Source: a virus (taxonomy: Duplodnaviria; Caudoviricetes). From it: DNA of 62,997 bases. A program made the translations under genes and the position numbers. Below are positions 6,488-25,608 of the stretch, in pieces. Numbering within the stretch: position 1 is the first letter of the stretch; the number at the start of each line of letters is the position of its first letter. Location: positions 1 to 62,997 of the IMG/VR virus record IMGVR_UViG_3300009149_000034; one strand, 5' to 3'. The notes beneath the pieces were generated by a model that worked only from the letters and a program-made list of their open reading frames with translations, made no database searches and was not told where the DNA came from.

Positions 6488-6489
6488 TC

Positions 6490-7518
6490 TCACCAAGCAA
6501 CATCTTCCAACGCTTTGATATCCCGACGTTTGAGTTCGCTACGTAGTTCTCTTAAAGTACGCTCTTTTATCTGTCGTACACGCTCAGGCGTTATGCCCGT
6601 TATCGCAGATAATTGAGGTAGACTCTTAGGTTCAGAGCGACGCTCAAACGTCGGCATGTCATAATAGCGAAGAATTATAAACTTATCGCGGGGTCTGAGG
6701 TTCAAACAGTTTAATGTTTTACGCAGTAATTGAGAGGTATCAGCCCCTACTGAGTCCCTCTCAATATTAGTATCATCGGTTAAAACTAAATCATCCATAG
6801 GCAAGGTGGTATTCAGAGTTTCAGTTTTCAATATGGGTACGAACTCGTGCTCCGAACTCTCTGGACACTCACTGTATGGCGCATTCCGTAATGATCCTTC
6901 TATGCGTAAATCGCAGTGACGACATATATATGCCCCGTGTTTTCTTAACTTCTGTTGTTCTTTTCTTTTATGCGATGGCAGATGAACTGTTGAATTAGAG
7001 TTAATCTCGTCCATCATCTCTTTACGCACCCACCATGCTGCGTATGTAAGAAACTTAGTTTTTATCTTAACATCGAACTTATCTACCGCGATCATGAGAC
7101 CAACATTTCCTGCGGAAATGAGTTCTAGTAGCTGTTCAAAGTTAGGAGAAAAAGACTTAGCGGTCTTTACAACGAATCGGAGGTTGGCGTTTATCAATTC
7201 TTCTCGTGCCTCTACGTCGCGGTCTGAGCCGCAAAGTGGGCAGTACTCAGGAGATATGTAAACGTCAAATTTAGTATTGCAATTACAACATGAGCATAGA
7301 CGTCCCCTAGTACGTTTAGGTAGCGGATCGCCACACTCTGGGCACCCCTTCCGCTTAACTTTCAAAGGAAAGTATTTATTGCAATGAGGACAAGTGCGGT
7401 AACGTATTAATAGTTTACGCTCTTGTTCATATGTTAATACTGGATGTTTACTTAGATCGTCGTAATACGTTTGGTATATGCGTGAAACATTCACATCCGG
7501 TGTAGCAGAATTGTACAT
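6490..7518 (-). CDS. sigma70-family RNA polymerase sigma factor with zinc-ribbon insertions
   Basis: Region 1.2 (YYDDLSKHPVLTYEQE), region 2 (ELINANLRFVVKTAK, LISAGNVGLMIAVDKFD, KFLTYAAWWVR), region 4 (GITPERVRQIKERTLRELR). Confidence 0.92.
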   Translation of the reverse strand: MYNSATPDVNVSRIYQTYYDDLSKHPVLTYEQERKLLIRYRTCPHCNKYFPLKVKRKGCPECGDPLPKRTRGRLCSCCNCNTKFDVYISPEYCPLCGSDRDVEAREELINANLRFVVKTAKSFSPNFEQLLELISAGNVGLMIAVDKFDVKIKTKFLTYAAWWVRKEMMDEINSNSTVHLPSHKRKEQQKLRKHGAYICRHCDLRIEGSLRNAPYSECPESSEHEFVPILKTETLNTTLPMDDLVLTDDTNIERDSVGADTSQLLRKTLNCLNLRPRDKFIILRYYDMPTFERRSEPKSLPQLSAITGITPERVRQIKERTLRELRSELKRRDIKALEDVAW

Positions 7519-9550: not shown

Positions 9551-12500
9551 GAAAAAGGGATTCTCAAGAGAAAGAATTTGGAAAATTTGGGGCAGCGTCG
9601 GATCTCAGGGGTGGTTCGACCTTGCACAAGAATTCTCTAGAGATAGTAAATTTTCATACGCGGGTAAGGATATATTAAAGGGTATATGTCCCCGCAAAGA
9701 ACACGCAGACACTACACCTTCCTTTTATCTAAATGCAGGCAAAGGGTTTGCTCGGTGCTACGGGTGTGACTTCTTTACGTCCAACCCTCTTAACATGGCA
9801 TCTCTCCTTCTGGAGAAAACAGAGGATGAGTGTTTACACATTCTACAGGAGCGCTTCAACCTCACCTTCATTACTACGAAGGACATTGAAGACTTAGAAG
9901 CTCAGCGGCTAAATCAACAAACAAAACAGGTGATACAGAGAGCGACACATGCTGCACTCTGCGAAGCTGTTTACGACACGTCTTTTACAAAATACCCCAC
10001 AGGTAGAGCTGCTGTAGAATGGTTACTGACAGACCGTAAGATTCCTATCGACGCTATACCCTCTCTCCCGATAGGGTTAATGCCCCCATTAACAGAACTT
10101 GTTACACGAATAAGCCAAGATTATCTTACGGCGCATAGGGCATGGATTGCGGCGGGTAAAGCAACAAAAGAACCCCGTAATCTAAGTGATCATGTAGGAG
10201 TCTACTTAACCGCAATACACACACAACCTATCTTTAACGGTAGCGTCGTATTTCCTATGCATGTTACTCCCAATGACATTGGTAGATTTAAACTTCGCGC
10301 ACCTCATAGCCAAGCACACAAAGATATAATAATCCCAAAAGATCCCTACGAAGAAAACCTGGGCGTATACGGTATGGGCTGGAGTCCTTATCAGAGCATA
10401 GGAGATCCCACACACCCCACTGAATGGGTGTACCTAACTGAAGGTGAATTTGACGTTCTTACGTACATGGCACAGTCATTACAACAAGGAGGACCCAAAT
10501 TTATACTGTACTCTGTAGGCGGCACCAGTTCCTCTAAAGGCATTGAACCTATCCTTACAGCCGTTGGTTACAAAGGAGCTTACCTCATAGGGGATGCCCC
10601 GTATAAGGGTAGTCAAAACTCAGGTGATGTACTGAAGGATTGGATTAAACATACATCAAAACTTAGATCAAAAGTATTCGTGGGCTGGGACGAACTTGTT
10701 CCATCTAATGACCTAGATGAAGCAGTTCTTACACACGGTATAGCTAAAATAGAGGATACTCTTTGGAAAAATCCTGATGATACTTTTGAACCCACCTGGA
10801 AATGGGTAGCGCAAAATGCTTTAGAAGAATTACAAGGGGTCCCTGAGGATGACCGTCGCCTAATAATGGAAAAGGCCACTAGGCATGGTCAACTACTACG
10901 GAATAAAACAGACATTCAGTCTTTCGTAGATGAGATAGGCGCGGCCTACAACGTAAAAACATCACACCTTAAGCGCGAGATTGCATCTAGTGAAGACACA
11001 GAGATGGGCTTTATTCTTAGATGCACTGATGCATTACAAGACATGGTGTTCGTTGTGGGCACTGAAGTTGGTGCTGGTGGTCGTTGGTTAATCTTCTGCG
11101 AAAAAGAAACTAAGGCATTTCACCGTGTACGTCTAGATAGTGAACAGTCTATCGCGCAAGAAATAGCGCCTATGTGTGGAACGCTATTGTCCTTCATAGA
11201 TGATAAAGTAGGATTTCCTTCTTTCTTAGAAAATCCCGCAGACTCTGAAAATTTAATCTACAGCAAAGTAGATACACAACTGAGGTTTTACATGAAAGAG
11301 GCGTTTCACAATTTAGCGTTGGGATCTCCTAACTTTGATTCTGCGCAGCACCTACGGCAGGGGTATCACCACATTGAATCTGCTGATAAAACTACTAAGG
11401 AGTACATTGTATGCGGCACAGACGTGTTCCGTATTGAACGCGAAGGTGCATCCTGTGAATTTGTAGCTCTAGAGGGTCCATCAGACCAGGGTATAGTCTT
11501 TGATGTAGGGTTTGAAGGAGAACTAACACCCTCATGGTACCCTGGTGGACTATCTGTAGATATTCTTAACCAAGGTAAAAGCCTAAACATCAATGCACTA
11601 TACGACACGATTCATGACTTTCTCGACACAGGTTTTCAATTTAAAAACCATAATGTAACTGTAGAAATGTTGACTGCGCTATTACTATCCTTTCCTATTC
11701 ATACAGCTCTTCCACGCCAGCTTCTCATGTTTTTTACAGGAGATACGTCTTCAGGTAAAACTCACTTAGTGTCTGTATTCTCAGGATTCAGTGGTGAGAA
11801 GATACAGTTACTCCTATGTGCTAGAGGTATCGATCAATATACGCCAGCAGGGGTATTTGCAATGACTCACAGAGACTCTCGCCTTCTAGCGCTAGACGAA
11901 TTTGAGTCTACAGATCCTGAGAAGAGGGAACGTGTAGAGACTATTCTACAGGGGTTCCGTGGCTTAGTTACGGGAGAAACAGCGCGCGTTAAAGCTCGTC
12001 CTGATGGTTCATACAGTGTTAGTACGCACAAACTCCCCGTAATTTTCTCCGCTATTTCTAGCGCAGCTAAGCCACAAGATCTCAACCGCCTTCTGACTGT
12101 TGAGATGGACCGAGTAAAGAACAGGGATAAACCTACTACTCTCTTACATAAGAAGTACGGGCAATCTAAGATCGATAAATTGGCTAAGGATATAGCTATA
12201 GCAATGTACTCCCGAGTACCCGAATTCTTACAGTGTTACAGCGATATTGAACACGAGTTCAGCACATACCAAGCTACACTACCTTTCCAAGTTCCAAATC
12301 GATTTGCTACGTCCCTATTCGGTGCTCTTGCTATGATGAAAATGCTTGGGCGTGACTGGAAAGCATTCTTTAGAACCTATGTGATCCTACATGAGAGTGC
12401 GCTACATCGAGCATCAACTACTACCGAATCAGAGAGCTTCTTGAAAGCAATGATGTTCAACCCGGCATTACGCCAGATGGGGACGGACTCTGCAGCGTCG

Positions 12501-12914: not shown

Positions 12915-15908
12915 ATGATAGACTGTACCCTATGTGGTGACCATGCATGGCAGGGACCTGGTTGCTCTGAATGTGACCAATATAAGAACGCTCACTATAC
13001 AGAAGGTACCGGCGCGAACATTAAAAGTGATCCCGCCGCGTACTTCTGTATAGCTGAGTCTCCTGATGTTACAGGGGTCTCTGGCAAATTAAACGTCCAC
13101 CAAGGATGGTCTTTTGATATTGAGAAAACAATCAAAAGAGCATTCGCTACACATAAAGGAGAGATAGACCAAACCTTAATGGGTCTCACAGGGCGCTATA
13201 CATACGCAATGCGCTGCTCTAAAGAGAAACCCGTAAAGAAAGATATCCTAGCGTGTGCTCCTCTAGTACATGCTGAATTATTAGAATACGCCGTAAAAGA
13301 TAAGCCAATTATGGTTTTCGCCTTGGGTGAAAAAGTACTCACCTCTTTAGGGATTGCTGTTAAGAAGTATCGGTCGTTTCAAGGACGTTTTACTAAGACG
13401 ATGTTAGGAGATCGTGAAGTAATTGTTTACGCATCTTTGTCTAAACGCCAGTTAGTAGCTAAACCAGGTCATATAGAAATCCTCAAGAAACACATGATGG
13501 TTTTTATGGACGCGGTACACGCTATATCTAAAGGTAAGGACATCCGGACAAGGACGGAAATAGCTACGTTAACGGCCAAATACCATTTTCCTAAAAGTGT
13601 AAGTGCCCTTCGTAAACTTGTTGAATACATCACAGAATACACGTCGGGAGGTTTCGACGCTGATAAACTTCCTCTAGCAATCGACACAGAAACGAATACC
13701 GTTAATCCTCATCGAGATAAATTAAAGATACTATCCTTTGTAGTATCTTGGGCACCTGGAGAAGCAGCGTCTATCCCTCTAGAACATCCTCAAAGCTACT
13801 TTACATTTGAAGAAGCGGCTCCTTACGTACAGAGGATCTTAGATTGCGCTAAACCTAAGATCCTACATAATGCTAAGTTCGATCTAAAGGTGCTATGGCG
13901 GAAGGGGTGGAAAGTACGTAATTTTGCGTGGGATACGATGCTAGCGGAGCATCTTTTAGAAGAAGATAAGAAAGGATATTACAGTCTAAAAGAACTTACG
14001 CGCGTGATGCTTCCTGACTACGCTGATTATGAAGAAGACATTGACACCTTTATGACTGAGTTAAAAGCTAAAAAGGCTAAGAAGGAAACCGCCAGACTAA
14101 AGAAACTAAACCGTCCTCTCCCTCCGAAGCTAAAAGGCGCAGCTGCCAAGCTCGCGGATGATGGTGGGTACGAAGAAGTACCTCTGCGTATACTGAATCC
14201 TTATGGGGCGATTGACGCAGATGTAACTCGTCGCATTGCTATTATCCAACAAGCTAGGATGAAGCAAGAACAAAAAGATCAGCGTAAACTGCGGGATGAG
14301 CTACGTAAAAACCCCTATGCGACTAAGTATATACTGACACGTACAGCACCTACAGATAAGCCACTTCCTAATTTGATGCGAGAGCAACTTACATCCGCCA
14401 GTGAAGTTCTTGGCAACATGGAATTAGTGGGCATGCCCGTAGACAAAGACTACATAGAGGAACTCGTTGTAGAGCTCGACCGGTCTATTACTCTATCTAA
14501 GATTCAACTTAGTACTATGATACCGTCCTACGTATTCGAGGAGTTCAATCCTAGTAGTAACCCTCAACTCAGAAAGTTACTATATGGTACAGGGTATATA
14601 CATCCTGAGACAGGCGCGACTGTCTGTTACAAGGATATTGTGGAACCTCCTACTACTGCTAAGGGCGCAATATCTACTAATGCCGCCTTCTTAAAACAAC
14701 TAGTCAACCAAAATGACTGTGTGTTCTCAAAGGAACTTCTAATATTCAGAGCTATGTCTAAGGCTCGCAATACATTCGTAGAGAATATCAAAGTGCTGAG
14801 CGAAGAAGATGGGCGTATGCATACTTCCTTTCATATAGCTGGAACTTCCACTGGACGGTTAAGTTCCTCTAATGAAAATATGCAGAATGTCCCTAAACAA
14901 ATAGGTAAACACAATATCAAAAAGATCTTTGTACCTTCAGACAGAGAAAACAATATTATACTAAACGCCGATGCCAAAGCTGCTGAGGTGCGCATATACG
15001 CAGCATATAGCAAAGATAAAAATCTAATTGAGGCTCTCAATAATGGGATGGACCCACACTCGTTCTTCGCTTCAATGGTATACGCTCCTGAAAAGGTCTT
15101 AGCAAACGTACCACCTTCAGACTATAAGACCGTCATGGACACAATAGGAATTGACTCAGTGCACGCCTGGTCTTATGACGACTTTCAAAATCGCAGTGAC
15201 TTCATAGGTTCAAATAAGAATCCTGGACCAGACCCTACATATGGTAAACAACTAAATAAGTTGCGTACTAACATCAAGAGGGTGGTCTTTGGTATTCTCT
15301 ACGGCGCAAGTAAGTACAAGATTTCTTCTATAGTAGGGATCTCTGAGGAGCAAGGCGCGGCTATAATATCGTCGCTATTCACCATGTTCCCGTCTATCCC
15401 TGAATACATCAAGAGAACATATGAGCAACTGAATCATCTGAAAATGGTAGAGACATTCTTTGGACGACGCCGCAGGTTTGATACTGCGGGTATGCCGTTT
15501 AAAATGAAGAACAAAGCACAACGACAAGCAGTGAATTTCAAAATTCAAAGTACTAGTTCAGAGATAGTAATAAGAGTTATGAACGATATCGCAGAACCCA
15601 TCAAGCATGATTTCAACGGGCAATTAATGATCACCGTACACGACTCTGTCGTAGGTGAGATCCCGAAAAAATATATATCCCAGATGCCTGCATTCATGGA
15701 AGAGTACGGTGTAAATAGAGTAAGGAAACTCTATGACTGGCTTCCAGTCCCATTTCAGTGGGACGTTGAAGTAGGGCCCTCATATGGAGAGCTATCTCCC
15801 GTAGATCGTTATCTAGAAAATGACTCATCTGTGGTACAAGAGGAAGTCGTTGGCGCACTTGATTTCTTGGATCAAGAAATAAAGTCCGAACTCGCACAGA
15901 GCGTATAA
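12915..15908 (+). CDS. polA: family A DNA polymerase with N-terminal uracil-DNA-glycosylase-like domain and 3'-5' exonuclease
   Basis: Exo motifs IDTET, HNAKFD, YGAIDAD; pol motifs TGRLSS..N.QN, NADAKAAEVR, KRVVFGILYG, TVHDS; Cys-rich N-terminus with AESP, MRC, VFALG. Confidence 0.93.
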   Translation: MIDCTLCGDHAWQGPGCSECDQYKNAHYTEGTGANIKSDPAAYFCIAESPDVTGVSGKLNVHQGWSFDIEKTIKRAFATHKGEIDQTLMGLTGRYTYAMRCSKEKPVKKDILACAPLVHAELLEYAVKDKPIMVFALGEKVLTSLGIAVKKYRSFQGRFTKTMLGDREVIVYASLSKRQLVAKPGHIEILKKHMMVFMDAVHAISKGKDIRTRTEIATLTAKYHFPKSVSALRKLVEYITEYTSGGFDADKLPLAIDTETNTVNPHRDKLKILSFVVSWAPGEAASIPLEHPQSYFTFEEAAPYVQRILDCAKPKILHNAKFDLKVLWRKGWKVRNFAWDTMLAEHLLEEDKKGYYSLKELTRVMLPDYADYEEDIDTFMTELKAKKAKKETARLKKLNRPLPPKLKGAAAKLADDGGYEEVPLRILNPYGAIDADVTRRIAIIQQARMKQEQKDQRKLRDELRKNPYATKYILTRTAPTDKPLPNLMREQLTSASEVLGNMELVGMPVDKDYIEELVVELDRSITLSKIQLSTMIPSYVFEEFNPSSNPQLRKLLYGTGYIHPETGATVCYKDIVEPPTTAKGAISTNAAFLKQLVNQNDCVFSKELLIFRAMSKARNTFVENIKVLSEEDGRMHTSFHIAGTSTGRLSSSNENMQNVPKQIGKHNIKKIFVPSDRENNIILNADAKAAEVRIYAAYSKDKNLIEALNNGMDPHSFFASMVYAPEKVLANVPPSDYKTVMDTIGIDSVHAWSYDDFQNRSDFIGSNKNPGPDPTYGKQLNKLRTNIKRVVFGILYGASKYKISSIVGISEEQGAAIISSLFTMFPSIPEYIKRTYEQLNHLKMVETFFGRRRRFDTAGMPFKMKNKAQRQAVNFKIQSTSSEIVIRVMNDIAEPIKHDFNGQLMITVHDSVVGEIPKKYISQMPAFMEEYGVNRVRKLYDWLPVPFQWDVEVGPSYGELSPVDRYLENDSSVVQEEVVGALDFLDQEIKSELAQSV

Positions 15909-15910
15909 AA

Positions 15911-16255
15911 ATGGTACTGGATTTCTGCAGAACAAGCCAGAAATGGGAGAGGTTACCTCTCTAGTGCATTCCTTAATGTATGCACGCCACTAAAGGCAGG
16001 CAGGGGCCCTCTAGGCTATTGTTCTTGCGAACAACCGCCCTAGGGCCCCACGCCCCCACTTTCAGCTAGCAGTACCCATGGAGGAACGCCTAACTCTAGG
16101 GGTCGAATTGGACGTGTGGCGCCGACCTAAGCAGTTATACTAACTGGATAGTTTCTCTTACGGGAGAACAGGGGGTGCTACACCCCCATGGATTATTTGC
16201 TACCAGGCCGGGCCTTTTGGTGCCCATTCCGCACAAAAGAACCTACGTAGCAGTT
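15911..16255 (+). ncRNA. putative multi-hairpin structured non-coding RNA; the first domain is retron msr/msd-like
   Basis: About nine stem-loops in ~345 nt with long-range closing helices (GGTACTG 15913-15919 / CAGTACC 16070-16076; TGCTAC 16198-16203 / GTAGCA 16247-16252); G-U pairs and a UACG loop favour the + strand. Confidence 0.65.
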
Positions 16256-16262
16256 AGTAGGA

Positions 16263-16291
16263 AGAGAGCAGCCACGCGCTGCTCTTTTTTT
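16263..16291 (+). terminator. intrinsic terminator closing the structured element
   Basis: AGAGAGCAGC-CACGC-GCTGCTCT followed by a T run. Confidence 0.88.
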
Positions 16292-16293
16292 GC

Positions 16294-17880
16294 TTACTCC
16301 TGCCAGAACTTCATGTCCCCGTGTAAAACCTTCCACGCGATCCACCCAAACAACGCAGCATGCAAACAGTCATCAGACTTCTGAGGGAAGTGACGCCATA
16401 CCTTTTTACCTTGCGTAGTAACCTCTTCGAACTCATTCATCATATCGTCTAACGCAGGTTTCATCTCTAATAGAGGTCCAAACTCAACCTCTTTCTTCTT
16501 GAGAAGCATAAAGAAGTTATCTATGAGTGTAGTCCTATCCCCGTGGTACCGGTCTAACCCATTAAACTGTAACGCTGTCTTGAATGAACCATACTGTACT
16601 TGTGTAACCTTATGGTGCCCCAAAGATTTACGCAGTAAATCATTAGCTAACGCCCCCTCCCCTGCGTCACCTACGGCCATGGATACCCCGTATAATTTAC
16701 ATATATGTGCTATATCCTCATGCGCCTGTACAGGATTCATACCAGGGTAAATCTTATAGGTCACACAACACAATTTACTGTCGGTTGCGCGCTGTCCCCA
16801 AACCCATAAGACCGTTCGGGATACACCTGTAGTTCCACCCCCCGACCAGTCAATACCCGCAACATACTTGCTATACCCGCGTAACTTAGCAGACTGTGGG
16901 TACGCCACTAACTCAGGTCCAACGCACAACGCCTCGAGCTCCTCTAAGGATATAAGGCGAGATCCTATAGCGTCACTGACACCCAAAACCTCATTCCTAA
17001 AAAGGGAGATGGGTGACTCTTCATACTTTTGTTTTATACGCTGCCACCTGCGTTGTGCATGCTTGTACTCTACAGGTCTATTAACCATAGACAACGGCAC
17101 GTTCTTAGGCATTATAAGCTGACTAATGTGAAAACCTTTGAGCGTTTTTTTCGGCTGCATGTCCACCCATTGACCTAAGAATGGGTTTAGGTACGCAGAG
17201 CACTTAACACAAATGGGACCGTCTTTGCCCATGGCTCTCTCGCTATCTATGAACGAATACTTACCGCATGCAGAGCATTTCATAACCCACTCAGTCTGAG
17301 TACTGAGGTCCCACAAGAATTGGATTGTATTCTCCATCGTCTTGGGAGTACCTGCGTAGGTTTCATACGCATAGTTAGACTCAGACATGGTCTCATTGCC
17401 CACAGTTATAACTGGGTCATATAGAATATCCTGTACCTCATCGTACATGTTCCGGTCAGTTGAAGGACCACGGAGCCTGTCTGCGTCGTCACACCCATAT
17501 GTAAAGAGCATTTCTGCCCCATTAGTAAACTGTTTATGAAATACACGATCTGCTAGTTCAGTGTGTAAAAAGTTCTCTTTTAGGATAGGAGAGTACATCA
17601 TCGTTTTTCCAACACGACTATTAGAAAAACGGGTAGTTTGCTCCTTAGAAGGACTTACAAACATTGTCGAAAAAAAGGGTATAAGAGAACATTCAATGAT
17701 GGAGAAGTTGGCTAATGTTGTAGACTTCGCCACCTGGCGACTGGTCTTAAAAAGAGTACGCCTATATCGACCATCATAGAAAGCCTTGTGCATTGGCCAG
17801 TCGTCTAAGCGGAATGGTTTACCGTCTAAGCGAACCCAAGCCTCTGCCACTTGCGATAAGGTAGCACGATCAACAGTCAT
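16294..17880 (-). CDS. terL: terminase large subunit
   Basis: KTSRQVAKST Walker A, YDEVQD Walker B, GTPKT coupling motif, two CxxC, nuclease GIDWSGG and DDCLHA. Confidence 0.9.
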   Translation of the reverse strand: MTVDRATLSQVAEAWVRLDGKPFRLDDWPMHKAFYDGRYRRTLFKTSRQVAKSTTLANFSIIECSLIPFFSTMFVSPSKEQTTRFSNSRVGKTMMYSPILKENFLHTELADRVFHKQFTNGAEMLFTYGCDDADRLRGPSTDRNMYDEVQDILYDPVITVGNETMSESNYAYETYAGTPKTMENTIQFLWDLSTQTEWVMKCSACGKYSFIDSERAMGKDGPICVKCSAYLNPFLGQWVDMQPKKTLKGFHISQLIMPKNVPLSMVNRPVEYKHAQRRWQRIKQKYEESPISLFRNEVLGVSDAIGSRLISLEELEALCVGPELVAYPQSAKLRGYSKYVAGIDWSGGGTTGVSRTVLWVWGQRATDSKLCCVTYKIYPGMNPVQAHEDIAHICKLYGVSMAVGDAGEGALANDLLRKSLGHHKVTQVQYGSFKTALQFNGLDRYHGDRTTLIDNFFMLLKKKEVEFGPLLEMKPALDDMMNEFEEVTTQGKKVWRHFPQKSDDCLHAALFGWIAWKVLHGDMKFWQE

Positions 17881-17946
17881 ACTTGTAAATTACAGTAATA
17901 ACAACAACTTGCAAATCAAATAATTTTGCAAAGGAGGACAAAGGAA

Positions 17947-19188
17947 ATGAGCAGACCTAAAAAGGGTGAGGGAGAAGCACAACATTACTGCGAACTCAAC
18001 GACATCCCGAGAGCGTCGGTTAAGCAGATCAAGGATCAGATCAAGCTTTCGATGGATACGCAGCAACACAGAGGCGTCCCCTGCATCGTCGGAGAAGCGG
18101 GAATCGGAAAGTCGCAGATCGTGGCGCAGCTAGCAAAGGCTAGCGGTGCCAAGGTGTACGACATCAGGACTGCTCACTACGGGCTCGTCGGTGCCGGCAT
18201 CCCCAGCACCAAGAACGCACCAGAGGGATTCTTTGACGTGGTGGTCCCGTCAGTATTTCCCAAGCCCGGAGAAAAGAGCATCATGCTCTTCGAGGAGATC
18301 AACCAGGGTCTCCCACACGCTATCTCCATGTTCTTCAGTCTCATCGAGGACAGGCGCATGTTCAACTACGTGCTGCCGGAAGACACGACCGTTATAGCGC
18401 TGATGAACCCGGCCACTGCCCAATACGCAGTGACTGCGGTCGAGAAGAACGCAGCGCTGAAGAGGCGCCTGAAGTGGATCTTCGCGATAGCGAACTTCCG
18501 GGACTGGCTCGAGCATGCCAAAACGCCGGCGTTCCACGATTCCGACAGCGTCGCTTTCCAAGGAGAGCCCAAGCCCTGCCATCCGCAGGTCCTGTCGTAC
18601 GTGCAGATCTTCAACAGCAACCTGTACGACACCAAGGCAAGAGACCAGGGAAAAGTATACGCCTGCCCAGCAACGTGGCAGACGGTCTCCCTGGACATGT
18701 ACATGATGGAGAAGGGTGGATACGACGTCACGTCCCCCTTCGCGCTGAACAGGATCAGCGCGAGCATCGGGAACACCATGGGCATCCACTACCTGGAGTT
18801 CGTGAAGGATCACAGCACCGCAGTGCGTGCCGACGACGTAATCGAGGATTACACCAAGAGAGCCAAGAAGGCCGTGATCAGCCTTCTCGAGAGTTCACAA
18901 CACGAGAAGATCAACGAGCTCAACGTTAACGTTCTCCGGTATATGTTTGGTGTACAGCCCAAGGCGAAGAAGGCGGCGCACAACCTGGTGGAGTATCTCC
19001 TGGATCTCCCGAACGAGATGCGGTCTAGCGTCCTCAATCAGCTGCGCACGGTCTCGGATGAGAACGATGCGAACGACTACCTCTTCGACATCGTGCGAAA
19101 CTTGCAGCGCCACAAGAACTGGGTAGACGTCCACACACAGTTGGACGAGACCCAGACGCTGGTAGAGAAGGCGCTCGAAGAGGTCTAA
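17947..19188 (+). CDS. MoxR-like AAA+ ATPase
   Basis: Walker A GEAGIGKS, Walker B LFEEIN, ALMNP sensor, ALKRR arginine finger; start at ATG 17947 after AGGAGG. Confidence 0.85.
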   Translation: MSRPKKGEGEAQHYCELNDIPRASVKQIKDQIKLSMDTQQHRGVPCIVGEAGIGKSQIVAQLAKASGAKVYDIRTAHYGLVGAGIPSTKNAPEGFFDVVVPSVFPKPGEKSIMLFEEINQGLPHAISMFFSLIEDRRMFNYVLPEDTTVIALMNPATAQYAVTAVEKNAALKRRLKWIFAIANFRDWLEHAKTPAFHDSDSVAFQGEPKPCHPQVLSYVQIFNSNLYDTKARDQGKVYACPATWQTVSLDMYMMEKGGYDVTSPFALNRISASIGNTMGIHYLEFVKDHSTAVRADDVIEDYTKRAKKAVISLLESSQHEKINELNVNVLRYMFGVQPKAKKAAHNLVEYLLDLPNEMRSSVLNQLRTVSDENDANDYLFDIVRNLQRHKNWVDVHTQLDETQTLVEKALEEV

Positions 19189-19931
19189 ACCCCACGGAGC
19201 TTCATTACGGTGAGGCCTAAAACCTTAGCTTGTTCTTCCAAGAACAATCTACAGCTCGCTAACTTGGACAACTGGACTCCTAGGCGGTCCTCTGGAAACT
19301 CTGTGTTCTGGAGGACCGTCTTGTCCAGTTGCTTCCAAGCATAGCGTGTTTCACGCTGTAAATTTTTGGCGTCGGAGGATATTATATTGTCCAATACCCC
19401 TTGGCTGAAGTCTAACTCTTCAGGCGCTACAGCCCACCCCGCTCTCTTTAGAACCGTAGCTACGAACATCTGAACGTCGTCATCGAAATCAGGTACATCA
19501 TCGCCATAAGGATCTTGCCCTCGGATTACCGCGGCTTCTATAACTGCCCACGCCATGTGATACACGGAAGGTTCCTGCAAACACTCTGGATTAAAGGGCA
19601 TCCCGTTTAAAGCCTGCACAGTATTCTGGAATACTAGGTTATCCCAGTAGAAAGCTAAATTAGATTGTAAGGTTAAGGCCGCTTCTAGCTTATTTCTGGC
19701 CTCACTATCTAAGTCAATATCGTCCTGCTCTAGGGTTAACCAAAAAGTCTCAGGCTCCCAGTCTTGAATTTGAATACCGTAGAGAGTACGTACCGATGCG
19801 TAGATAGCAGACGCAGGGCAGTCTTCAGGGAGATCCTTCAACAGACTTCTGGCTTCATCCTTATTTTCACCAGAAAGATCAACTGTGAGTTTCACAGTAA
19901 GTTCAGCTAGTTTCTCAAATTCAGGGCGCAT
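19185..19931 (-). CDS. hypothetical protein, likely head/packaging module
   Basis: 248 aa ORF co-directional with the terminase; no recognisable motif. Confidence 0.7.
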   Translation of the reverse strand: MRPEFEKLAELTVKLTVDLSGENKDEARSLLKDLPEDCPASAIYASVRTLYGIQIQDWEPETFWLTLEQDDIDLDSEARNKLEAALTLQSNLAFYWDNLVFQNTVQALNGMPFNPECLQEPSVYHMAWAVIEAAVIRGQDPYGDDVPDFDDDVQMFVATVLKRAGWAVAPEELDFSQGVLDNIISSDAKNLQRETRYAWKQLDKTVLQNTEFPEDRLGVQLSKLASCRLFLEEQAKVLGLTVMKLRGV

Positions 19932-19934
19932 GCG

Positions 19935-20939
19935 TTACCGGTAAGCGGCCAGTTGTTTTTGCGCTATAGCCATCAAGTCAGCAGGTAAGGTGGGGAGTAA
20001 CTGATAGAGAGCCTCAGGATTAACTGTCTGTCCATCAGTGGATATTTCAGCCGCTATATCATCCCCCAGTAGGTCCTTCCAAAAATCTAGGGGTAACGCA
20101 GCGAGCTTCGACTTATCCATCATGAAGTCAGCCCCCAGAGACACCTGATCTTCCGCTATCTTTTCCGTGTTGAAAACAGTCAACATAGGGTCAGGTAACT
20201 TCGTGCCGTAGTACTTATCAATACCCGCCTCTTTGTCTAGCCCGTGTATTGTGCTAGCTAACTTGATCTGTAACTGGCGATCATTCCACATAGCAGCTTT
20301 TCCAGCGAACTCCTGTGCTATTTTACTGAATGCCCTACCAATAGGAGTGTCCCCACTAGCTGCAGAACGAGCATCCATGTAGTCCTTCAACGTACGGGTG
20401 CTAGTAACTGTAAATCCGGCCAATTTATAGGTAGAAGGAGATAACGTAACGTCATGCCGTTTAGCCGCTACACCCAATCGAGAGAAGGTTTGCGCCCTAT
20501 CTTCAATTGTGAGCTCGGCGTACTTATGGCGTAATGCAGTCTCTGCATACTTAACATCATCCGCAGATGCCACACGGTATCTACTTTTCTCAGGTAGGAG
20601 CCAGTACTCCTCTGACGCGGTCTTCTCCGTAGGAGATTCAACGTAAATATCTTTCTCTATCCCATAAAGTTCCGCAGCCTTATTTAGTTCTGCATCTACA
20701 GTAGCAGGAACGTTAGAAGCCAGCTTACGATACGCAATGGATAACGCAGCATGTTCTTTATTATGCACAGGAAATTTACGTTGTGCCGGCCATGCAAATG
20801 CAGAATCAGCTAACTTCTCAAATTCATCCTCGGCAATGTTCGCTGTCTTAGAGAATTCTTTAAGCGTGGGAAACTTGTCCGTAAGAACACGGAGGCGCGA
20901 GTACCCAGGGTCATTGGTTTGGTCGATCACTGTGGTCAT
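19935..20939 (-). CDS. hypothetical protein, possibly head assembly
   Basis: 334 aa; DSAFAWPAQRKFPVHNKEHA with a degenerate second copy; several EKTA/KLA motifs. Confidence 0.7.
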   Translation of the reverse strand: MTTVIDQTNDPGYSRLRVLTDKFPTLKEFSKTANIAEDEFEKLADSAFAWPAQRKFPVHNKEHAALSIAYRKLASNVPATVDAELNKAAELYGIEKDIYVESPTEKTASEEYWLLPEKSRYRVASADDVKYAETALRHKYAELTIEDRAQTFSRLGVAAKRHDVTLSPSTYKLAGFTVTSTRTLKDYMDARSAASGDTPIGRAFSKIAQEFAGKAAMWNDRQLQIKLASTIHGLDKEAGIDKYYGTKLPDPMLTVFNTEKIAEDQVSLGADFMMDKSKLAALPLDFWKDLLGDDIAAEISTDGQTVNPEALYQLLPTLPADLMAIAQKQLAAYR

Positions 20940-21007
20940 AGTGTACCTCGTCAGTTACCTAAACAAGGGGTGTGTTACATACCCGCCAAATTATAGGAGG
21001 TAGTGTA

Positions 21008-22414
21008 GTGGAAAACAAGGAAAACCCTTCGGTGAAAGAAATACGAGATGAGTCTTACAAAGCCATGGGCGCCGTCATGCAATGGCTCAGCAGCCCCCGT
21101 GGCGGAGACAACTTCTACGGACGGATCATGAATGGGTGCGGCAGAACGCCCAAGGAGGGGGTAAAAACAGCGTGTGTGACTCTTACCTCGGAGGGAAAGT
21201 ATCTCCTCCTCTGGGATCCAGCATGGTTCGTTAGCCGTAAGATGCCAGACCGCATCCTGACGGTGATCCATGAAGCGGGGCACATCGTCCTACAACATCT
21301 GGAAAGAGCCCTACGTCTGCGGCTCTCCGTACGAGAACCAGAAGTGTTCCAACGGCTCCTACCCATCTTTAATATCGCTGCTGACATGGCGTCAAACGAT
21401 ATTGCTCTCAGGCCCTTCGTAGATTCCGGAGTCTTCAAGAACTACAAGGACGGGTTTCTCTTCCCGGAGAACCCACAATACGATTTTCCAGAGAATCAGA
21501 CGTTCGAGAAGTACCTGGAACTCCTCATTCAGAAGGCTAAGTCCGAGGGGTACAACCCCAAAACAGGTGAGGGCGCTGTACCCCAATGGATGGAAGGGAT
21601 GCAGGGACACCTGCCCTGGTGGAATGAACTCGACTCAATGACAGAGGATGAGATCGAGAACATGCACCAGAGAGCGAAGAGGGAATCGAAGAAGATCGTT
21701 AAGAAGGCTGTCGAGCAGACAAAGAAAGACCGCGGAACAATGCCTTCAGGTCTGGAGGGTCTGATCGAAGGAATGCTCGAGGAACCTCAGGTTCCCTGGA
21801 CAGTGATGCTCCAGAACCTGATGAAGGGGAGCATTACCTCCAAGCTGGACGAGAGCACCGCGTGGCCTAACATCGGACTGCTCACGGAAGAGGCGATGGC
21901 GCAGGGGATGGAGCCTTATCCGGGTTTCCAGAAAAAGCCAGGTATCCACGTGACCGTGGCTATCGACACTTCTGGAAGTGTTTCGGACGAGAACTTCAAG
22001 AAGTTCATGGGTGAGATCCAAGGAATTATGAGCAGCGAACAGGCTGTGAGCGTGCACGTACTCATGTTTGATGCCGCTATCCAACATGAGTTCATCCTCA
22101 AGGAGGACTCCAATATCGATAACCAGCATCGTTATCGGTATGGGTACGGAGGAACATCCTTTACACCAGCACTCCGGCATATACTGGGAGTGGATGATGA
22201 CCAGAACTGGGAAGAAAACGCAGAACGTCTGAAAGAGCCCGCCCCTCGCCCAGACATGGTTGTCATGTTCACGGATGGTTACGCACCTGTAACCGAGGAA
22301 GAGGGCGGACCTATGCCCAAGTATGAACCCCCATGCCCACTAATGTGGGTGATCACCGAAGACGGTACTGTTCATCCAGGCATGGGCAGTAGGGTCGTCA
22401 AGATGGAGTACTAG
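21008..22414 (+). CDS. HExxH metallopeptidase-like plus VWA domain protein (MoxR partner)
   Basis: IHEAGH..LQH, FNIAAD...N; MIDAS motif AIDTSGSV, GGTSF, FTDGY; GTG start 7 nt after AGGAGG. Confidence 0.88.
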   Translation: MENKENPSVKEIRDESYKAMGAVMQWLSSPRGGDNFYGRIMNGCGRTPKEGVKTACVTLTSEGKYLLLWDPAWFVSRKMPDRILTVIHEAGHIVLQHLERALRLRLSVREPEVFQRLLPIFNIAADMASNDIALRPFVDSGVFKNYKDGFLFPENPQYDFPENQTFEKYLELLIQKAKSEGYNPKTGEGAVPQWMEGMQGHLPWWNELDSMTEDEIENMHQRAKRESKKIVKKAVEQTKKDRGTMPSGLEGLIEGMLEEPQVPWTVMLQNLMKGSITSKLDESTAWPNIGLLTEEAMAQGMEPYPGFQKKPGIHVTVAIDTSGSVSDENFKKFMGEIQGIMSSEQAVSVHVLMFDAAIQHEFILKEDSNIDNQHRYRYGYGGTSFTPALRHILGVDDDQNWEENAERLKEPAPRPDMVVMFTDGYAPVTEEEGGPMPKYEPPCPLMWVITEDGTVHPGMGSRVVKMEY

Positions 22415-22417
22415 CCC

Positions 22418-23029
22418 ATGAAGATCTACCGACTTAAACTGCGTCAGAGGCGTCTGGATAATACTCGGAAGCATGCTTTCCACTACTTCCCATTCGACAA
22501 TGTCTACTTCGTTCCGACGAACCAAGTATCGATTAGTCGGCGCCTATTCAGGTACTGCCTAATAATCGATGTTGATCCGACGTTACGGAGTGCCATTAAA
22601 GATGTGTCAGTACAGAAGCACCGAGTGTTAGAGATCCCTCGTAGAGACAACATCGCATGGACAGACACCGATAAGGACGAAGACGTTACAGAATTCCTGA
22701 ATAAGGGAGACTGGACTATGCTGGTACCTACATACGCCCGTGTAGACAAGCATACGAACACAGCTAAGCTAAGTTACGTCTTGTCCGACGCAGTTAAGGG
22801 TATGCACAATCTGACCGCGCACCTTCCAGGTGTTAAGATCCAAACACCTAAACGTACAGTGCCTGCAATTTGTGCCCTGTGTGCACAAGCAGCGAACTAC
22901 TACGCTAACAAGTGTTCACCTGGAAGGCGCGTGTGTGCCAATAACATAGCACTATCTAGCGATGCGCTAGACCTACAAACCATCGTTGACATTGAAGAGT
23001 CTATCCGTGGTGCAGGAGAAGTAAAATGA
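22418..23029 (+). CDS. hypothetical protein with C-terminal 4-Cys motif, directly upstream of the RT
   Basis: 3-nt gap after the VWA gene, ATGA overlap with the RT; CALC-x10-C-x6-C. Confidence 0.75.
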   Translation: MKIYRLKLRQRRLDNTRKHAFHYFPFDNVYFVPTNQVSISRRLFRYCLIIDVDPTLRSAIKDVSVQKHRVLEIPRRDNIAWTDTDKDEDVTEFLNKGDWTMLVPTYARVDKHTNTAKLSYVLSDAVKGMHNLTAHLPGVKIQTPKRTVPAICALCAQAANYYANKCSPGRRVCANNIALSSDALDLQTIVDIEESIRGAGEVK

Positions 23030-24207
23030 CTAATGGATACGAGGATACACGACTAGAGGAAATACACGTAAATACCAAGTTAGATCCTTTGATCATTGAT
23101 GACTTCTCCTTAGCCTTCTTCCTAGGCTTCCGGAATAAAACCTTGTGGCATGCGCTCTACGCAAATACCGGCAACATGTATAAGGTGTTCAAGATACCCA
23201 AGAAAACTGGGGGATACCGGATGATCCATGCGCCGGAGCCGCTGATGAAGCACTTATTGGACAGAGTACATGTACGTTTACTGATGCCCCTACAGGAAAA
23301 GTTAGGGGACCACGTCACCGCATACCGTGAAGGTAAATCCATAACGGATGCGGTGGCGTACCATATTCCTAAGTGCAAAATTTGCGATTCAGCTCCTCCA
23401 GACAAGACACCCAAGAAGCATGACTGCCCTAAACGTGGTGTCTACATACACATGGATCTCAAGAACTTCTTCTCTAACACCCGTCGAGCCTGGGTTCGTA
23501 ACTACTTCATGCACAAAGGATATAGCTTTTACGTTAGCGGGCTAATTGCGCAGCTTGTTACTGTCGACGACATCCCTAACCCTAGGTACCCCAATGCGGT
23601 AGGACACCAGAAAGACAAATTACGAGAATTCTTTACAGGTGTACCGCAAGGAGGACCCACGTCAGGGGCGATATGCAACTTGGTTGCAGACTATAGGATG
23701 GATAAACCCATACTAGAGTACATACGGGAACTAAACAAACGACATGGGTTAAACGGTGAAAGGTCCTGGAGGTATTCTCGTTACGCAGATGATATGACAT
23801 TCACCTGCGGAATAGATCTTACGAGAGAAGAGAAGACCCAAATAACTAAAGAGATCCAAAAGGTCGTCGAAAAGTCGGGCTACCGCATAAATGAAAAGAA
23901 GACGCGTATCTCTAACTCGTACTACCGTAAAACGATGTTAGGTGTAGTATTTAATCAAAAGCCTAATATACCAAAAGAGAAGTACATGCGTATGCGCGCC
24001 ATCATCCACAACTGTGTAACTCAAGGAATCAAAAGTCAGGTTAATAGAGTACACAGGAAAGACGCAGATGACCTAGTCCTCTACCTTAGAGGAATGGTTA
24101 GCTACTACTCACAAGTCCACCCTAAGAAGGCAGCAAAGCTTAAAGAGGAACTCGATGTGGCAATAGCTAATCACCTAAAGGAGGAAGGAGCGCAAGCTGC
24201 ATGTTAA
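23026..24207 (+). CDS. retron-type reverse transcriptase
   Basis: YKVFKIPKKTGGYRMIHAP, AYREGKSI.DAVAYH (NAxxH-like), DLKNFF, PQGGPTS...NL, YSRYADDMTF (YADD at 23782-23793), GYRINEKKT, MLGVVFN at the VTG position, thumb RAIIHN...LRGMVSY. Confidence 0.93.
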   Translation: MTNGYEDTRLEEIHVNTKLDPLIIDDFSLAFFLGFRNKTLWHALYANTGNMYKVFKIPKKTGGYRMIHAPEPLMKHLLDRVHVRLLMPLQEKLGDHVTAYREGKSITDAVAYHIPKCKICDSAPPDKTPKKHDCPKRGVYIHMDLKNFFSNTRRAWVRNYFMHKGYSFYVSGLIAQLVTVDDIPNPRYPNAVGHQKDKLREFFTGVPQGGPTSGAICNLVADYRMDKPILEYIRELNKRHGLNGERSWRYSRYADDMTFTCGIDLTREEKTQITKEIQKVVEKSGYRINEKKTRISNSYYRKTMLGVVFNQKPNIPKEKYMRMRAIIHNCVTQGIKSQVNRVHRKDADDLVLYLRGMVSYYSQVHPKKAAKLKEELDVAIANHLKEEGAQAAC

Positions 24208-25607
24208 AAAAAGAGGCTTACTACGAGGGACCTATATTTACACTAGCCCGTTCTAATGCAGAGGACCGTCCTGAGTTACTTTTCATCAATACTACACGTA
24301 ACGAAGATTTCAATGAAGAGGATATAGAGACTATTGCGGAGAGTTCCCTAGTAAAAAAATTACTGGGGGACTCTTTTATATTAGTACTAGCGCCACAACG
24401 AAAATGGAATCAACGTTATCGGTGGAATAGTGACCCCAAGGAACACGACTTAAAATTGAATGTACTGCATGTTACACCTGACGTTAGTAACTTACTAATT
24501 AATAGATTAGATGAACCTTATCTGCGAAATGCGAAGGTATGGTTACGGAAGTCAGATGGTACCTTAAAAGCTTATGTGCCAAATGATGTTCATAATTATT
24601 GTCCCTCTCCTGCAAAATACGTAATGTCCTGTGAAGACTGTATGAGGAAAGGTGAGTTTACTGCTTGTGAATTTAGCAAGTTTGCCTCGTACATATCCGA
24701 GGACTTTAGCGGTATGGATAACTTCGATGCTATTAGATCTAAGCTTATACACCGTAAAACTAAAGTAGGTCCGTACTTATTCGTAAGTGCTTCCATGACA
24801 CATCCAGGTATAGAACCGTACTTACGACCCGCACGTGAGCATTACTTTGAAGTCGTAGAATCTGTCGCAGATATCCGTCGAAAAGCTAACTTAGAAAGGA
24901 CCAGATTCAACAAATTTAAGAAAGCAGAGTGTGCCAATTGTATGCTGCATAATACTTGCCATACACGTTTGTATGATGATTACTTTATACGATACTGTAG
25001 TGGAAAGTATGAAGGCGACGAAAAGACAATAGCCTCCAGGATGGTTGATAAAGTTACGATCCCTTATACACCTACACAACTACGTTATCTCACTCTAAAT
25101 TCTGGGATATTAAATAAGCGTGTGAATAGGTGTAAGTACACGGCGACGTTCAAACTGTTTGAAGGACCCTATTATGATACTACGGATGGAACTACAACGT
25201 CGCGTCCTACGTTACTATTCGGTATACATAGAACTCTGCTCCCCGGCCAGTGCTCATTCATGCCTATAAGAGACTTCGATGATGCCGTGAGACTACTTAA
25301 TGGTAAAAAAGACTATGTGATACCTAAGGATCGAAAGTACTTTAACACCGTTCAAACTGCTACTCTTCTACAGTTGTGTCATCAGCAATACTCAGTAGCT
25401 CGAGGAGGATGGGGCTGTACGTCCTACCCGAGAGCGTTTACAACCTACGACAGACTCTATGACTGTTTCAAGAGTTACCACTACTATCCGCATAGCTCCA
25501 TAACAGCCAATTGGACAACGGTAGCAGCAAAAAATCTAAAAGATGTTTACATAGAATACAAGCGTTTCATGCTAGAGGAGAAATCAGTATCACCGTTGAG
25601 ACGATAA
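24201..25607 (+). CDS. Cys-rich hypothetical protein directly downstream of the RT
   Basis: Overlaps the RT stop by 7 nt; C...CEDC...C and CANC-x5-C-x12-C clusters. Confidence 0.75.
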   Translation: MLKKEAYYEGPIFTLARSNAEDRPELLFINTTRNEDFNEEDIETIAESSLVKKLLGDSFILVLAPQRKWNQRYRWNSDPKEHDLKLNVLHVTPDVSNLLINRLDEPYLRNAKVWLRKSDGTLKAYVPNDVHNYCPSPAKYVMSCEDCMRKGEFTACEFSKFASYISEDFSGMDNFDAIRSKLIHRKTKVGPYLFVSASMTHPGIEPYLRPAREHYFEVVESVADIRRKANLERTRFNKFKKAECANCMLHNTCHTRLYDDYFIRYCSGKYEGDEKTIASRMVDKVTIPYTPTQLRYLTLNSGILNKRVNRCKYTATFKLFEGPYYDTTDGTTTSRPTLLFGIHRTLLPGQCSFMPIRDFDDAVRLLNGKKDYVIPKDRKYFNTVQTATLLQLCHQQYSVARGGWGCTSYPRAFTTYDRLYDCFKSYHYYPHSSITANWTTVAAKNLKDVYIEYKRFMLEEKSVSPLRR

Positions 25608-25608
25608 T

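Follow-up and report, generated by a model that had tools for sequence, protein, structure and literature searches.

Tandem retron msr/msd-like RNA units in the polA-terL gap of an uncultured phage, candidate templates for a retron-type reverse transcriptase encoded 6.9 kb away

Analysis of the IMG/VR virus record IMGVR_UViG_3300009149_000034 (the whole 62,997-base stretch, referred to as the window; estimated completeness 35%) revealed a structured element at positions 15911-16079, within the 385-nt gap between polA, the gene of a family-A DNA polymerase, and the convergent terL, the gene of the large terminase. The element belongs to a conserved family of structured plus-strand RNA units. 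An earlier reading made from the letters alone (the sequence-only reading) had taken it as a lone 169-nt orphan domain; instead, it is one of two units in this gap, and arrays of several units occur in relatives. Judged from their sequence features, the units are probably trans-encoded retron msr/msd-like templates for a retron-type reverse transcriptase (RT) of the same phage, encoded 6.9 kb downstream of unit 1. The region is present in one DNA sequencing run, kept as contigs, and no RNA run is listed for it.

Two structured units between polA and terL

The polA-terL gap is the longest stretch of the window free of any open reading frame (ORF) of at least 70 amino acids (aa), and the whole of it is strongly structured (z -5.35; 0 of 100 shuffles as good). 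The sequence-only reading had described a GGTACTG/CAGTACC terminal repeat, an unpaired G at 15920, three short hairpins and one long hairpin, each of which was found in the sequence where it had been placed. Folding of the plus strand of 15905-16085 yielded a minimum free energy (MFE) of -69.2 kcal/mol against a shuffle mean of -53.5 (standard deviation 4.4), corresponding to a z of -3.56 with 0 of 200 shuffles as good. In agreement with the model of that reading, the MFE structure has a long GC-rich hairpin in addition to a closing helix, three short hairpins and one further small hairpin. The minus strand of the unit 1 region also folds well, and even better (-81.3, z -5.14); therefore, folding alone cannot assign the strand. 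The features of the gap and its borders are as follows; alignment A7 is described below.

12915-15908, plus strand: polA, family-A DNA polymerase (Pfam DNA_pol_A, 1.8e-71)
15903-15908, plus strand: -10-like hexamer GTATAA, overlapping the polA stop codon (15906-15908), 4 nt 5' of the unit 1 a1 arm
15913-15919, plus strand: unit 1 a1 arm GGTACTG, which pairs with 16070-16076 in both the MFE and the centroid fold and in relatives is either conserved or compensated
15920, plus strand: unpaired G directly 3' of the unit 1 a1 arm, candidate branching (priming) G, invariant in 8 of 8 sequences of A7
15921-15997, plus strand: msr-like part of unit 1, four short hairpins by folding
15921-15944, plus strand: P2 hairpin of unit 1, by folding and by RNAalifold with compensatory changes
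15946-15962, plus strand: triloop hairpin P3 of unit 1, GGAGAGG-TTA-CCTCTCT, by folding and by RNAalifold with compensatory changes
15964-15985, plus strand: third short hairpin of unit 1, by folding
15986-15997, plus strand: fourth short hairpin of unit 1, by folding
15999-16054, plus strand: long imperfect GC-rich hairpin of unit 1, msd-like, by folding; unalignable among relatives and variable in length
16055-16069, plus strand: unpaired spacer of unit 1 ending in AG, with G16069 as candidate opposing G; all 8 sequences of A7 have the AG before a2
16070-16076, plus strand: unit 1 a2 arm CAGTACC, by sequence and folding
16077-16137, plus strand: inter-unit spacer with small hairpins in the MFE structure of the whole gap
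16138-16259, plus strand: unit 2 as a whole, by signature scan and folding
16138-16146, plus strand: unit 2 a1 arm TACTAACTG, 9 bp, paired with the a2 arm CAGTTAGTA
16147, plus strand: G after the unit 2 a1 arm, candidate branching G
16154-16167, plus strand: hairpin of unit 2, by folding
16171-16187, plus strand: triloop hairpin of unit 2, GGGGGTG-CTA-CACCCCC, by folding
16210-16243, plus strand: longer hairpin of unit 2, by folding
16250, plus strand: G (of AG) before the unit 2 a2 arm, candidate opposing G
16251-16259, plus strand: unit 2 a2 arm CAGTTAGTA, by signature scan and folding
16266-16291, plus strand: hairpin GAGCAGC-CACGC-GCTGCTC followed by T7, terminator-like for plus-strand transcripts by sequence and folding
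16294-17880, minus strand: terL, large terminase, convergent to polA (GpA_ATPase, 5.3e-12); among named relatives, the closest terminases, with about 28-31% identity, come from Salmonella phage Arash and from Vibrio phages

As outlined in part of PMC7736814, a retron noncoding RNA (ncRNA) is recognised by ends (a1/a2) that are complementary, a conserved branching G, between one and three short stem-loops in the msr and a long msd hairpin that varies, and its inverted repeats are described in part of PMC13402713 as flanked by a branching G and an opposing G. These hallmarks (a1/a2, the G/G pair, msr stems and msd hairpin) are found at the sequence level in both units of the window. The retron-like character proposed by the sequence-only reading is upheld with regard to the a1/a2 pairing, the G/G pair, the hairpins in msr position, the variable long hairpin and the retron-type RT, and falls with regard to the single orphan domain. 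At the start of unit 2, a perfect 6-bp hairpin, CAGTTA (16132-16137)-TAC-TAACTG (16141-16146), consumes the a1 arm and is preceded by an a2-like AAG. By its sequence, this hairpin may be left over from an upstream module, or else it may be an alternative fold in competition with the unit 2 closing helix.

We read the gap as a separate plus-strand noncoding RNA gene with two units, having a putative promoter at the GTATAA hexamer and a putative terminator at the hairpin with T7. Both signals are our own assignments, because a consensus scan of 15500-16700 listed neither (no promoter-like site, that is, no sigma-70 site, and no terminator-like site). A GTA[TA]AA box lies 8-12 nt 5' of the first a1 arm in 7 of 14 tabulated arrays (the window, L002, L003, L012, L019, L071 and L091), and no such box was seen by eye in the arrays of the related records G001 and G002. 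The arrays of L003 and G002 likewise finish with a hairpin and a U-run. Searching the window with the patterns TGNTATAAW and GCGTATAAAAA gave no useful enrichment, and a general phage promoter motif was not established.

No known RNA family was recognised in the gap. Scanning with Rfam gathering thresholds gave no match in the window or in six related loci, and an Rfam E-value scan of 15700-16500 returned sub-threshold matches only (Tymo_tRNA-like, sbrA and two snoRNA models). The Tymo_tRNA-like match at 16135-16205 (21.6 bits against a threshold of 40, E 0.043), which spans the start of unit 2 including the triloop hairpin and ends in ACCA, was judged to be due to chance, as was the weak sbrA match, an alignment of the hairpin and U-run at 16266-16291. 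In addition, ARAGORN found neither tRNA nor tmRNA in the window, and a blastn search of 50,697 phage records with the gap sequence gave no match.

A plus-strand RNA family in related phages

Searches of IMG/VR with polA, RT and terL yielded 25, 4 and 80 loci, respectively. The conserved gene order is primase-helicase, polA, the gap, terL (minus strand), AAA_5 ATPase, two minus-strand ORFs, a VWA/DUF2201 protein, a 203-aa ORF, RT and a 468-aa ORF. The polA-terL gap varies among relatives from 0 to more than 3 kb; the noncoding gaps of close relatives hold from one unit up to four or more, on the same strand as polA, and unit arrays occur in related phage contigs of about 60-190 kb. The gap itself is a variable spot, being of zero length in L014, L015, L017, L018, L021, L081, L085 and L141 and holding one to three ORFs in other relatives, to which L103 adds a tRNA-Val (12156-12228). 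The match to polA in L020/L024, L021 and L023, and that to terL in L118, L129, L132, L133, L136 and L144, spans 0.4-1.2 kb of extra DNA or is split, which suggests inteins, introns or inserted homing genes.

Comparison of the units revealed a common architecture. The closing helix has 6-15 bp and its sequence is free to differ (GGTACTG, TACTAACTG, GACGTTG, TCAGTGTTG, TTGCGCTG, CACAGGTTTCTG and others), and the junctions are fixed, a1 ending in ...YG followed by G[A/C] and a2 starting with C... after [A/C/T]AG. The common unit also contains a small hairpin and a G-C-closed triloop hairpin of 4-8 bp with a purine-rich 5' strand, the triloops of the family being UUA, CUA, AUA and UAA. The long hairpin is variable in length and sequence and unalignable, spanning about 30-130 nt in the folds of 23 units. 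L071 has one a1-G-P2-P3 module with four modules behind it, which differ in their long hairpin and share AG and the same a2 arm; in L091, a single 5' module is followed by three hairpin-AG-a2 modules. The pattern of one a1 with several a2 arms was also found in L002, L010, L019 and L070.

The family was scanned for with a signature composed of a closing helix (P1) of at least 6 bp, an a1 arm ending in G and followed by G, an AG before an a2 arm starting with C, and a G-NNA-C triloop hairpin. Over 11.1 kb of polA-terL gaps, the signature gave 31 a1/a2 pairings on the plus strand versus 0 on the minus strand; outside the gaps, 28 pairings were found in about 1.13 Mb with both strands counted. 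The two pairings of the window gap were reached in 3 of 2000 dinucleotide shuffles, and sixteen other gaps gave 29 pairings against a shuffle mean of 0.23 and a maximum of 4. Units were also present in loci fetched after the signature had been set (L070, L071, L074, L091, L090, L092 and L135).

The helices of the unit covary. In a 14-unit alignment, 10 of the 12 P1/P3 pairs changed on both sides with 100% of the cells paired, and covariation of the a1/a2 arms extends over 22 units and is also seen in 8 homologues taken without selection. For alignment A7, eight sequence-homologous first units were chosen without the signature scan and aligned by MAFFT; RNAalifold on A7 recovers P1, P2 and P3 with compensatory changes in 10 of 18 pairs, and the stretches GTACTGG and AGCAGT are invariant. 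Covariation in related phages, which the sequence-only reading had named as a check on its model, was thus seen with RNAalifold and in the alignments; the covariance model R1 performed poorly. Trained on 14 units, R1 recovered its training set, L009 11945-12156 (E 0.04), L013 8506-8672 (E 0.027) and, at E 2.7, one further match. Because R1 was overfitted to non-conserved columns, the scripted signature with shuffle and strand controls was used instead.

Small non-autonomous mobile elements of the miniature inverted-repeat transposable element (MITE) type, inserted in tandem, would also have terminal inverted repeats, a variable copy number and a variable genomic position. However, the arms differ within one genome (three in L011, four in L013), so that a transposase would not recognise them; moreover, no target-site duplications were seen and the window carries no copies elsewhere. 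We consider a MITE-like origin scarcely credible.

The strand of the family was assigned by wobble pairs in addition to the signature. The short hairpins contain 36 G-U pairs on the plus strand versus 10 when the complement is folded; therefore, the short hairpins behave as plus-strand RNA. In the long hairpins, the corresponding counts are 56 and 79 (Fisher p = 1.6e-5 for the short/long contrast), a strand symmetry that fits what would be expected if these hairpins also fold as complementary DNA (cDNA). The strand bias bears on a DNA-level hairpin element, namely a replication origin (the alternative offered by the sequence-only reading), a packaging site or a recombination hot spot, for which the good folding of both strands could speak, as could a location flanked by the genes of the DNA polymerase and the large terminase. 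Such an element is disfavoured by the signature counts and by the short-hairpin G-U excess, both of which distinguish the strands. In addition, the arms covary and only the junction bases are fixed, whereas a protein-recognised DNA repeat would retain its sequence, and the location is not bound to polA and terL. A DNA element is hence highly improbable.

The reverse transcriptase and its occurrence with the arrays

The sequence-only reading had assigned the element to an RT gene at 23026. This gene is real and part of an operon, and its surroundings are as follows.

22418-23029: 203-aa ORF, overlapping the RT gene and conserved with it in relatives
23026-24207, plus strand: retron-type RT, proposed trans partner of the units (RVT_1 4.4e-21; PADLOC RT_XIII 3e-59; catalytic motif YADD)
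24201-25607: 468-aa cysteine-rich ORF, overlapping the RT gene and conserved with it in relatives

All 25 best PADLOC models listed for the phage RT are retron RT models, with RT_XIII at the top, and a profile of three phage RTs gave 13 matches in the PDB, 12 to retron RTs and one to DRT1; the PADLOC and PDB matches place the RT in the retron clade. The catalytic motif Y[ACS]DD is kept in the three aligned phage RTs, and the synteny around the RT is conserved among relatives. No intergenic space exceeds 45 nt from 17881 to 26715, and therefore a canonical RT-adjacent ncRNA has no room. The 203-aa and 468-aa ORFs have no match in Pfam (even at E 5), PHROG, PADLOC or NCBIfam, and an atlas comparison gave no lead (scores of at most 0.77, TM of at most 0.30); both are candidates for an accessory or effector role in the RT system. 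At about residues 113-135, the RT carries an insertion HIPxCxIC ... HxCP (CxxC...HxC), invariant in the three phage RTs, which by its residues looks like a small zinc-binding module in the fingers region.

A diversity-generating retroelement (DGR) was considered and rejected, as the RT matches retron and not DGR models and the mismatches of a 179-nt repeat are not adenine-specific. This direct repeat, the only long one (50978-51156 and 51467-51645; 87% identity, 23 mismatches of mixed types), sits within a 1390-aa ORF on the minus strand (48240-52412). It is an internal duplication and not a template/variable pair, and the ORF is probably a fibre or tail gene. Elsewhere in the window, 5511-5618 holds five to six tandem copies of the 18-nt unit AGAAGGCCGCGCCCAAGA, which if in frame would encode a lysine/alanine/proline-rich peptide repeat.

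Ten records were examined for both components, six RT-positive and four RT-negative. Co-occurrence with the RT, another check named by the sequence-only reading, was borne out, with an array in all six RT-positive records and in none of the four RT-negative ones, a comparison that contains few independent contrasts. The arrays of the RT-positive records, three of which (G001, G002 and G011) have no polA-terL gap and carry the array elsewhere, are as follows.

Window: two units in the polA-terL gap, plus strand
G001: pair of units (117730-117988) lying about 60 kb away from the RT; no polA-terL gap
G002: single unit (14847-14976) with arms of 11 bp and a terminator behind it; no polA-terL gap
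G011: variant array lying about 100 kb away from the RT, at about 51.1-51.6 kb; no polA-terL gap
G012: arrays of variant form at 44.1 kb, 128.3 kb and 135.5 kb
G003: at least three variant units, which lie in the gap and have palindromic AAGATCTT arms

The variant units of G011 and G012 retain the G...G border, with a junction of UA followed by G on one side and of G followed by UA on the other. No noncoding unit was found in the RT-negative records, of which G004 and G005 are partial and the other two, G006 and G007, are complete and have terminal repeats; G006 and G007 each contain one isolated pairing under the strict criteria, inside a long ORF and with an atypical loop. A cluster of triloop hairpins at 87.4 kb in G005 was rejected as a unit, being a short tandem repeat of identical sequence. 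An informative contrast comes from the RT-negative clade L089/L098/L102/L103, which is nested among RT-positive clades: it has no units, and units are present in its RT-positive neighbours L090, L092 and L135. As to the placement of the element, the sequence-only reading had it behind the DNA polymerase and uncoupled from the RT; this is so in the window, but the position is not fixed, the array lying elsewhere in three RT-positive relatives.

The locations of the arrays also bear on whether the structures merely form a long 3' untranslated region of the convergent polA and terL, acting in 3'-end formation, stability or termination and having no function of their own. The window by itself might suggest this, since its gap lies between convergent genes and finishes in a hairpin with T7, and the gap is variable and holds ORFs or a tRNA in other relatives. 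However, the arrays of G001, G002, G011 and G012 lie away from polA and terL, between co-directional genes, and in five relatives polA and terL are not separated by any gap. Conserved junctions and multibranch units of 110-330 nt, moreover, far exceed what termination needs. We regard this explanation as very unlikely.

Relation to known retrons and a proposed mechanism

Retrons are bacterial anti-phage systems, with the template RNA beside the RT gene. The phage units resemble the msr-msd of bacterial retrons (Retron-Eco8 and Ec86, as portrayed in parts of PMC13402713 and PMC7736814) in the a1/a2 closure, the G/G pair and the retron-family RT. They differ in that the phage RNA gene stands apart from the RT (6.9 kb here, up to about 100 kb in relatives), that the phage units are in tandem (two to four or more), and that the phage system is among the genes conserved throughout a large phage lineage and not in a bacterial defence island. 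In addition, the phage RT lacks strict NAXXH/VTG and has the CxxC...HxC insertion, no effector is recognisable, and the multicopy single-stranded DNA (msDNA) of the phage is a prediction. According to part of Mestre et al. 2020 (PMC7736814), type XIII retrons have a WH-SWIM protein, usually plus a HEAT/ARM-repeat protein, beside the RT. RT_XIII is the best-scoring profile of the phage RT, whereas the ORFs flanking the latter match none of the families of the four databases searched (Pfam, PHROG, PADLOC and NCBIfam).

An alignment search with the phage RT found 22 loci in bacterial or archaeal genome contigs, which, besides L186, encode bacterial RTs at 23-32% identity. L186 is a 78,677-base contig of this phage lineage inside an Archaeoglobales metagenome-assembled genome (MAG) and has the same size as the IMG/VR record L020/L077; it is probably a binning artefact and not host evidence. 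In L201, a gammaproteobacterial MAG, the RT (5947-6843) has RT_XIII as its best model (3.8e-82), and a 124-nt unit at 5820-5943 lies directly 5' of the RT start codon. Its a1 arm has 11 bp and ends in CUG; then come a G, three short hairpins, one of them a G-C-closed triloop hairpin of 8 bp, a long hairpin, a second G and the a2 arm. L201, a predicted type-XIII-like retron, hence shares with the phage the best RT model and the unit anatomy, including the purine-rich triloop hairpin. Unlike the phage arrays, its unit is single and abuts the RT in the canonical layout, its triloop is UUU and not NUA, and its RT is only about 27% identical; L201 is itself a prediction. Among L187-L206, only L201 gave a clean adjacent unit, and L194, L203 and L191 gave long inverted repeats.

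In the engineered multitrons built on Retron-Eco1, as presented in part of bioRxiv 10.1101/2023.07.17.549397, one msr and one RT serve several arrayed msds, and ncRNA arrays work in trans. The phage arrays are alike in having several msd-type templates per array and one msr-type module. Multitrons are synthetic, whereas the phage arrays are natural (four modules in L071, three in L091), with the msr-like module in cis at the 5' end. A full-text literature search, which did not extend to supplements or subscription journals, found no phage-core retron, no uncoupled retron RNA gene and no natural multi-template array.

We propose a mechanism for the units, which is inferred from the established mechanism of retrons. 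Pairing of the a1 and a2 arms would set the unpaired G (15920 in unit 1, 16147 in unit 2) opposite the conserved G (16069 and 16250, respectively). The phage RT, acting in trans, would recognise the short hairpins, probably the G-C-closed triloop hairpin. Priming would occur from the 2'-OH of the G at the branching position (15920 or 16147), and the RT would copy the spacer and long hairpin 5' of a2 into a small single-stranded DNA (ssDNA). In relatives with one 5' module and several hairpin-AG-a2 modules, several different cDNAs may be produced per primer module.

Several observations weigh against reading the units as templates for the phage RT. At the level of the RNA, the "long" hairpin of unit 2 has only about 10 bp, and the arms have 6-9 bp in most units. 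The signature statistics are generous because the signature was defined on part of these data, and the P1/P3 pairing in alignments A4 and A5 arises partly by construction because the signature is post hoc; the model R1 missed the units of L003, L011, G001 and G002 and gained only two weak extras. Relaxed constraint could equally explain the strand symmetry of the long hairpins. At the level of the RT, the phage protein scores under every NCBIfam retron cut-off and has [D/H]AVxxH and (M/L)LG in place of NAXXH and VTG (as placed by eye in the three-RT alignment). Seven genes separate the array from the RT, 6.9 kb away, so that the contiguity of retrons is lacking, and distances of about 60 kb in G001 and about 100 kb in G011 break the usual retron layout. 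The analysis shows the structure with its conservation and covariation, the strand, the family of the RT and the co-occurrence; transcription, dependence on the RT, priming from the G and cDNA production are all steps that we infer.

The association with the RT is also open to discount. The variants of G003, G011 and G012 were recognised by eye, and the RT-negative genomes were inspected by eye only in their polA-terL gaps, which contain ORFs and, in the case of L103, the tRNA-Val. Among 41 terL-centred loci covering the RT zone, a unit in the gap was found in 12 of 25 RT-positive and 0 of 10 RT-negative loci (naive Fisher p = 0.007; six loci had no definable gap), but these counts represent few independent events because RT presence changes 3 times on the terL tree. 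A paired phylogenetic comparison of RT and unit had only 1-3 usable pairs, hence no power. The pattern among the terL loci is consistent with a link between RT and unit and is not an independent test of it.

The same observations would suit structured phage small RNAs that act independently of the RT, such as protein scaffolds, decoys or regulators, with co-occurrence reflecting shared ancestry. The evidence from structure, covariation, strand and the RNA gene's own signals fits any structured ncRNA, the position of the arrays is not linked to the RT gene, the three RT changes on the tree make the co-occurrence weak, and the RT has no strict NAXXH/VTG. However, such RNAs would leave unexplained the retron-like G/G border of the helix, the repeated modules of long hairpin, AG and a2 after one 5' module, the missing plus-strand wobble bias of the long hairpins, and the unit of the same anatomy upstream of the RT_XIII-type RT in L201. 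Nor does any Rfam family match in the window or in the six relatives. RT-independent RNAs are therefore, in our judgement, an unlikely explanation, although one of some weight, and we prefer to read the units as retron msr/msd-like templates supplied in trans.

For the lineage as a whole, we consider the following proposal evenly balanced: these uncultured phages of about 140-190 kb would keep a retron in their core, with the RT in a fixed operon and unlinked arrays, some of them natural multitrons, and would make small ssDNAs for their own benefit. If true, a phage lineage with a conserved retron-type system among its core genes would be new, as would template RNA genes that are fully uncoupled from the RT and mobile in the genome, and natural arrays of one primer and several templates, a design otherwise known from engineered multitrons only. 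It would raise the question of the role of phage msDNA, and would offer compact, naturally multiplexed producers of RT-DNA for genome engineering. The phage ssDNAs could then act as decoys for host defence or as substrates of replication or recombination, which would reverse the role of the retron as a bacterial anti-phage system.

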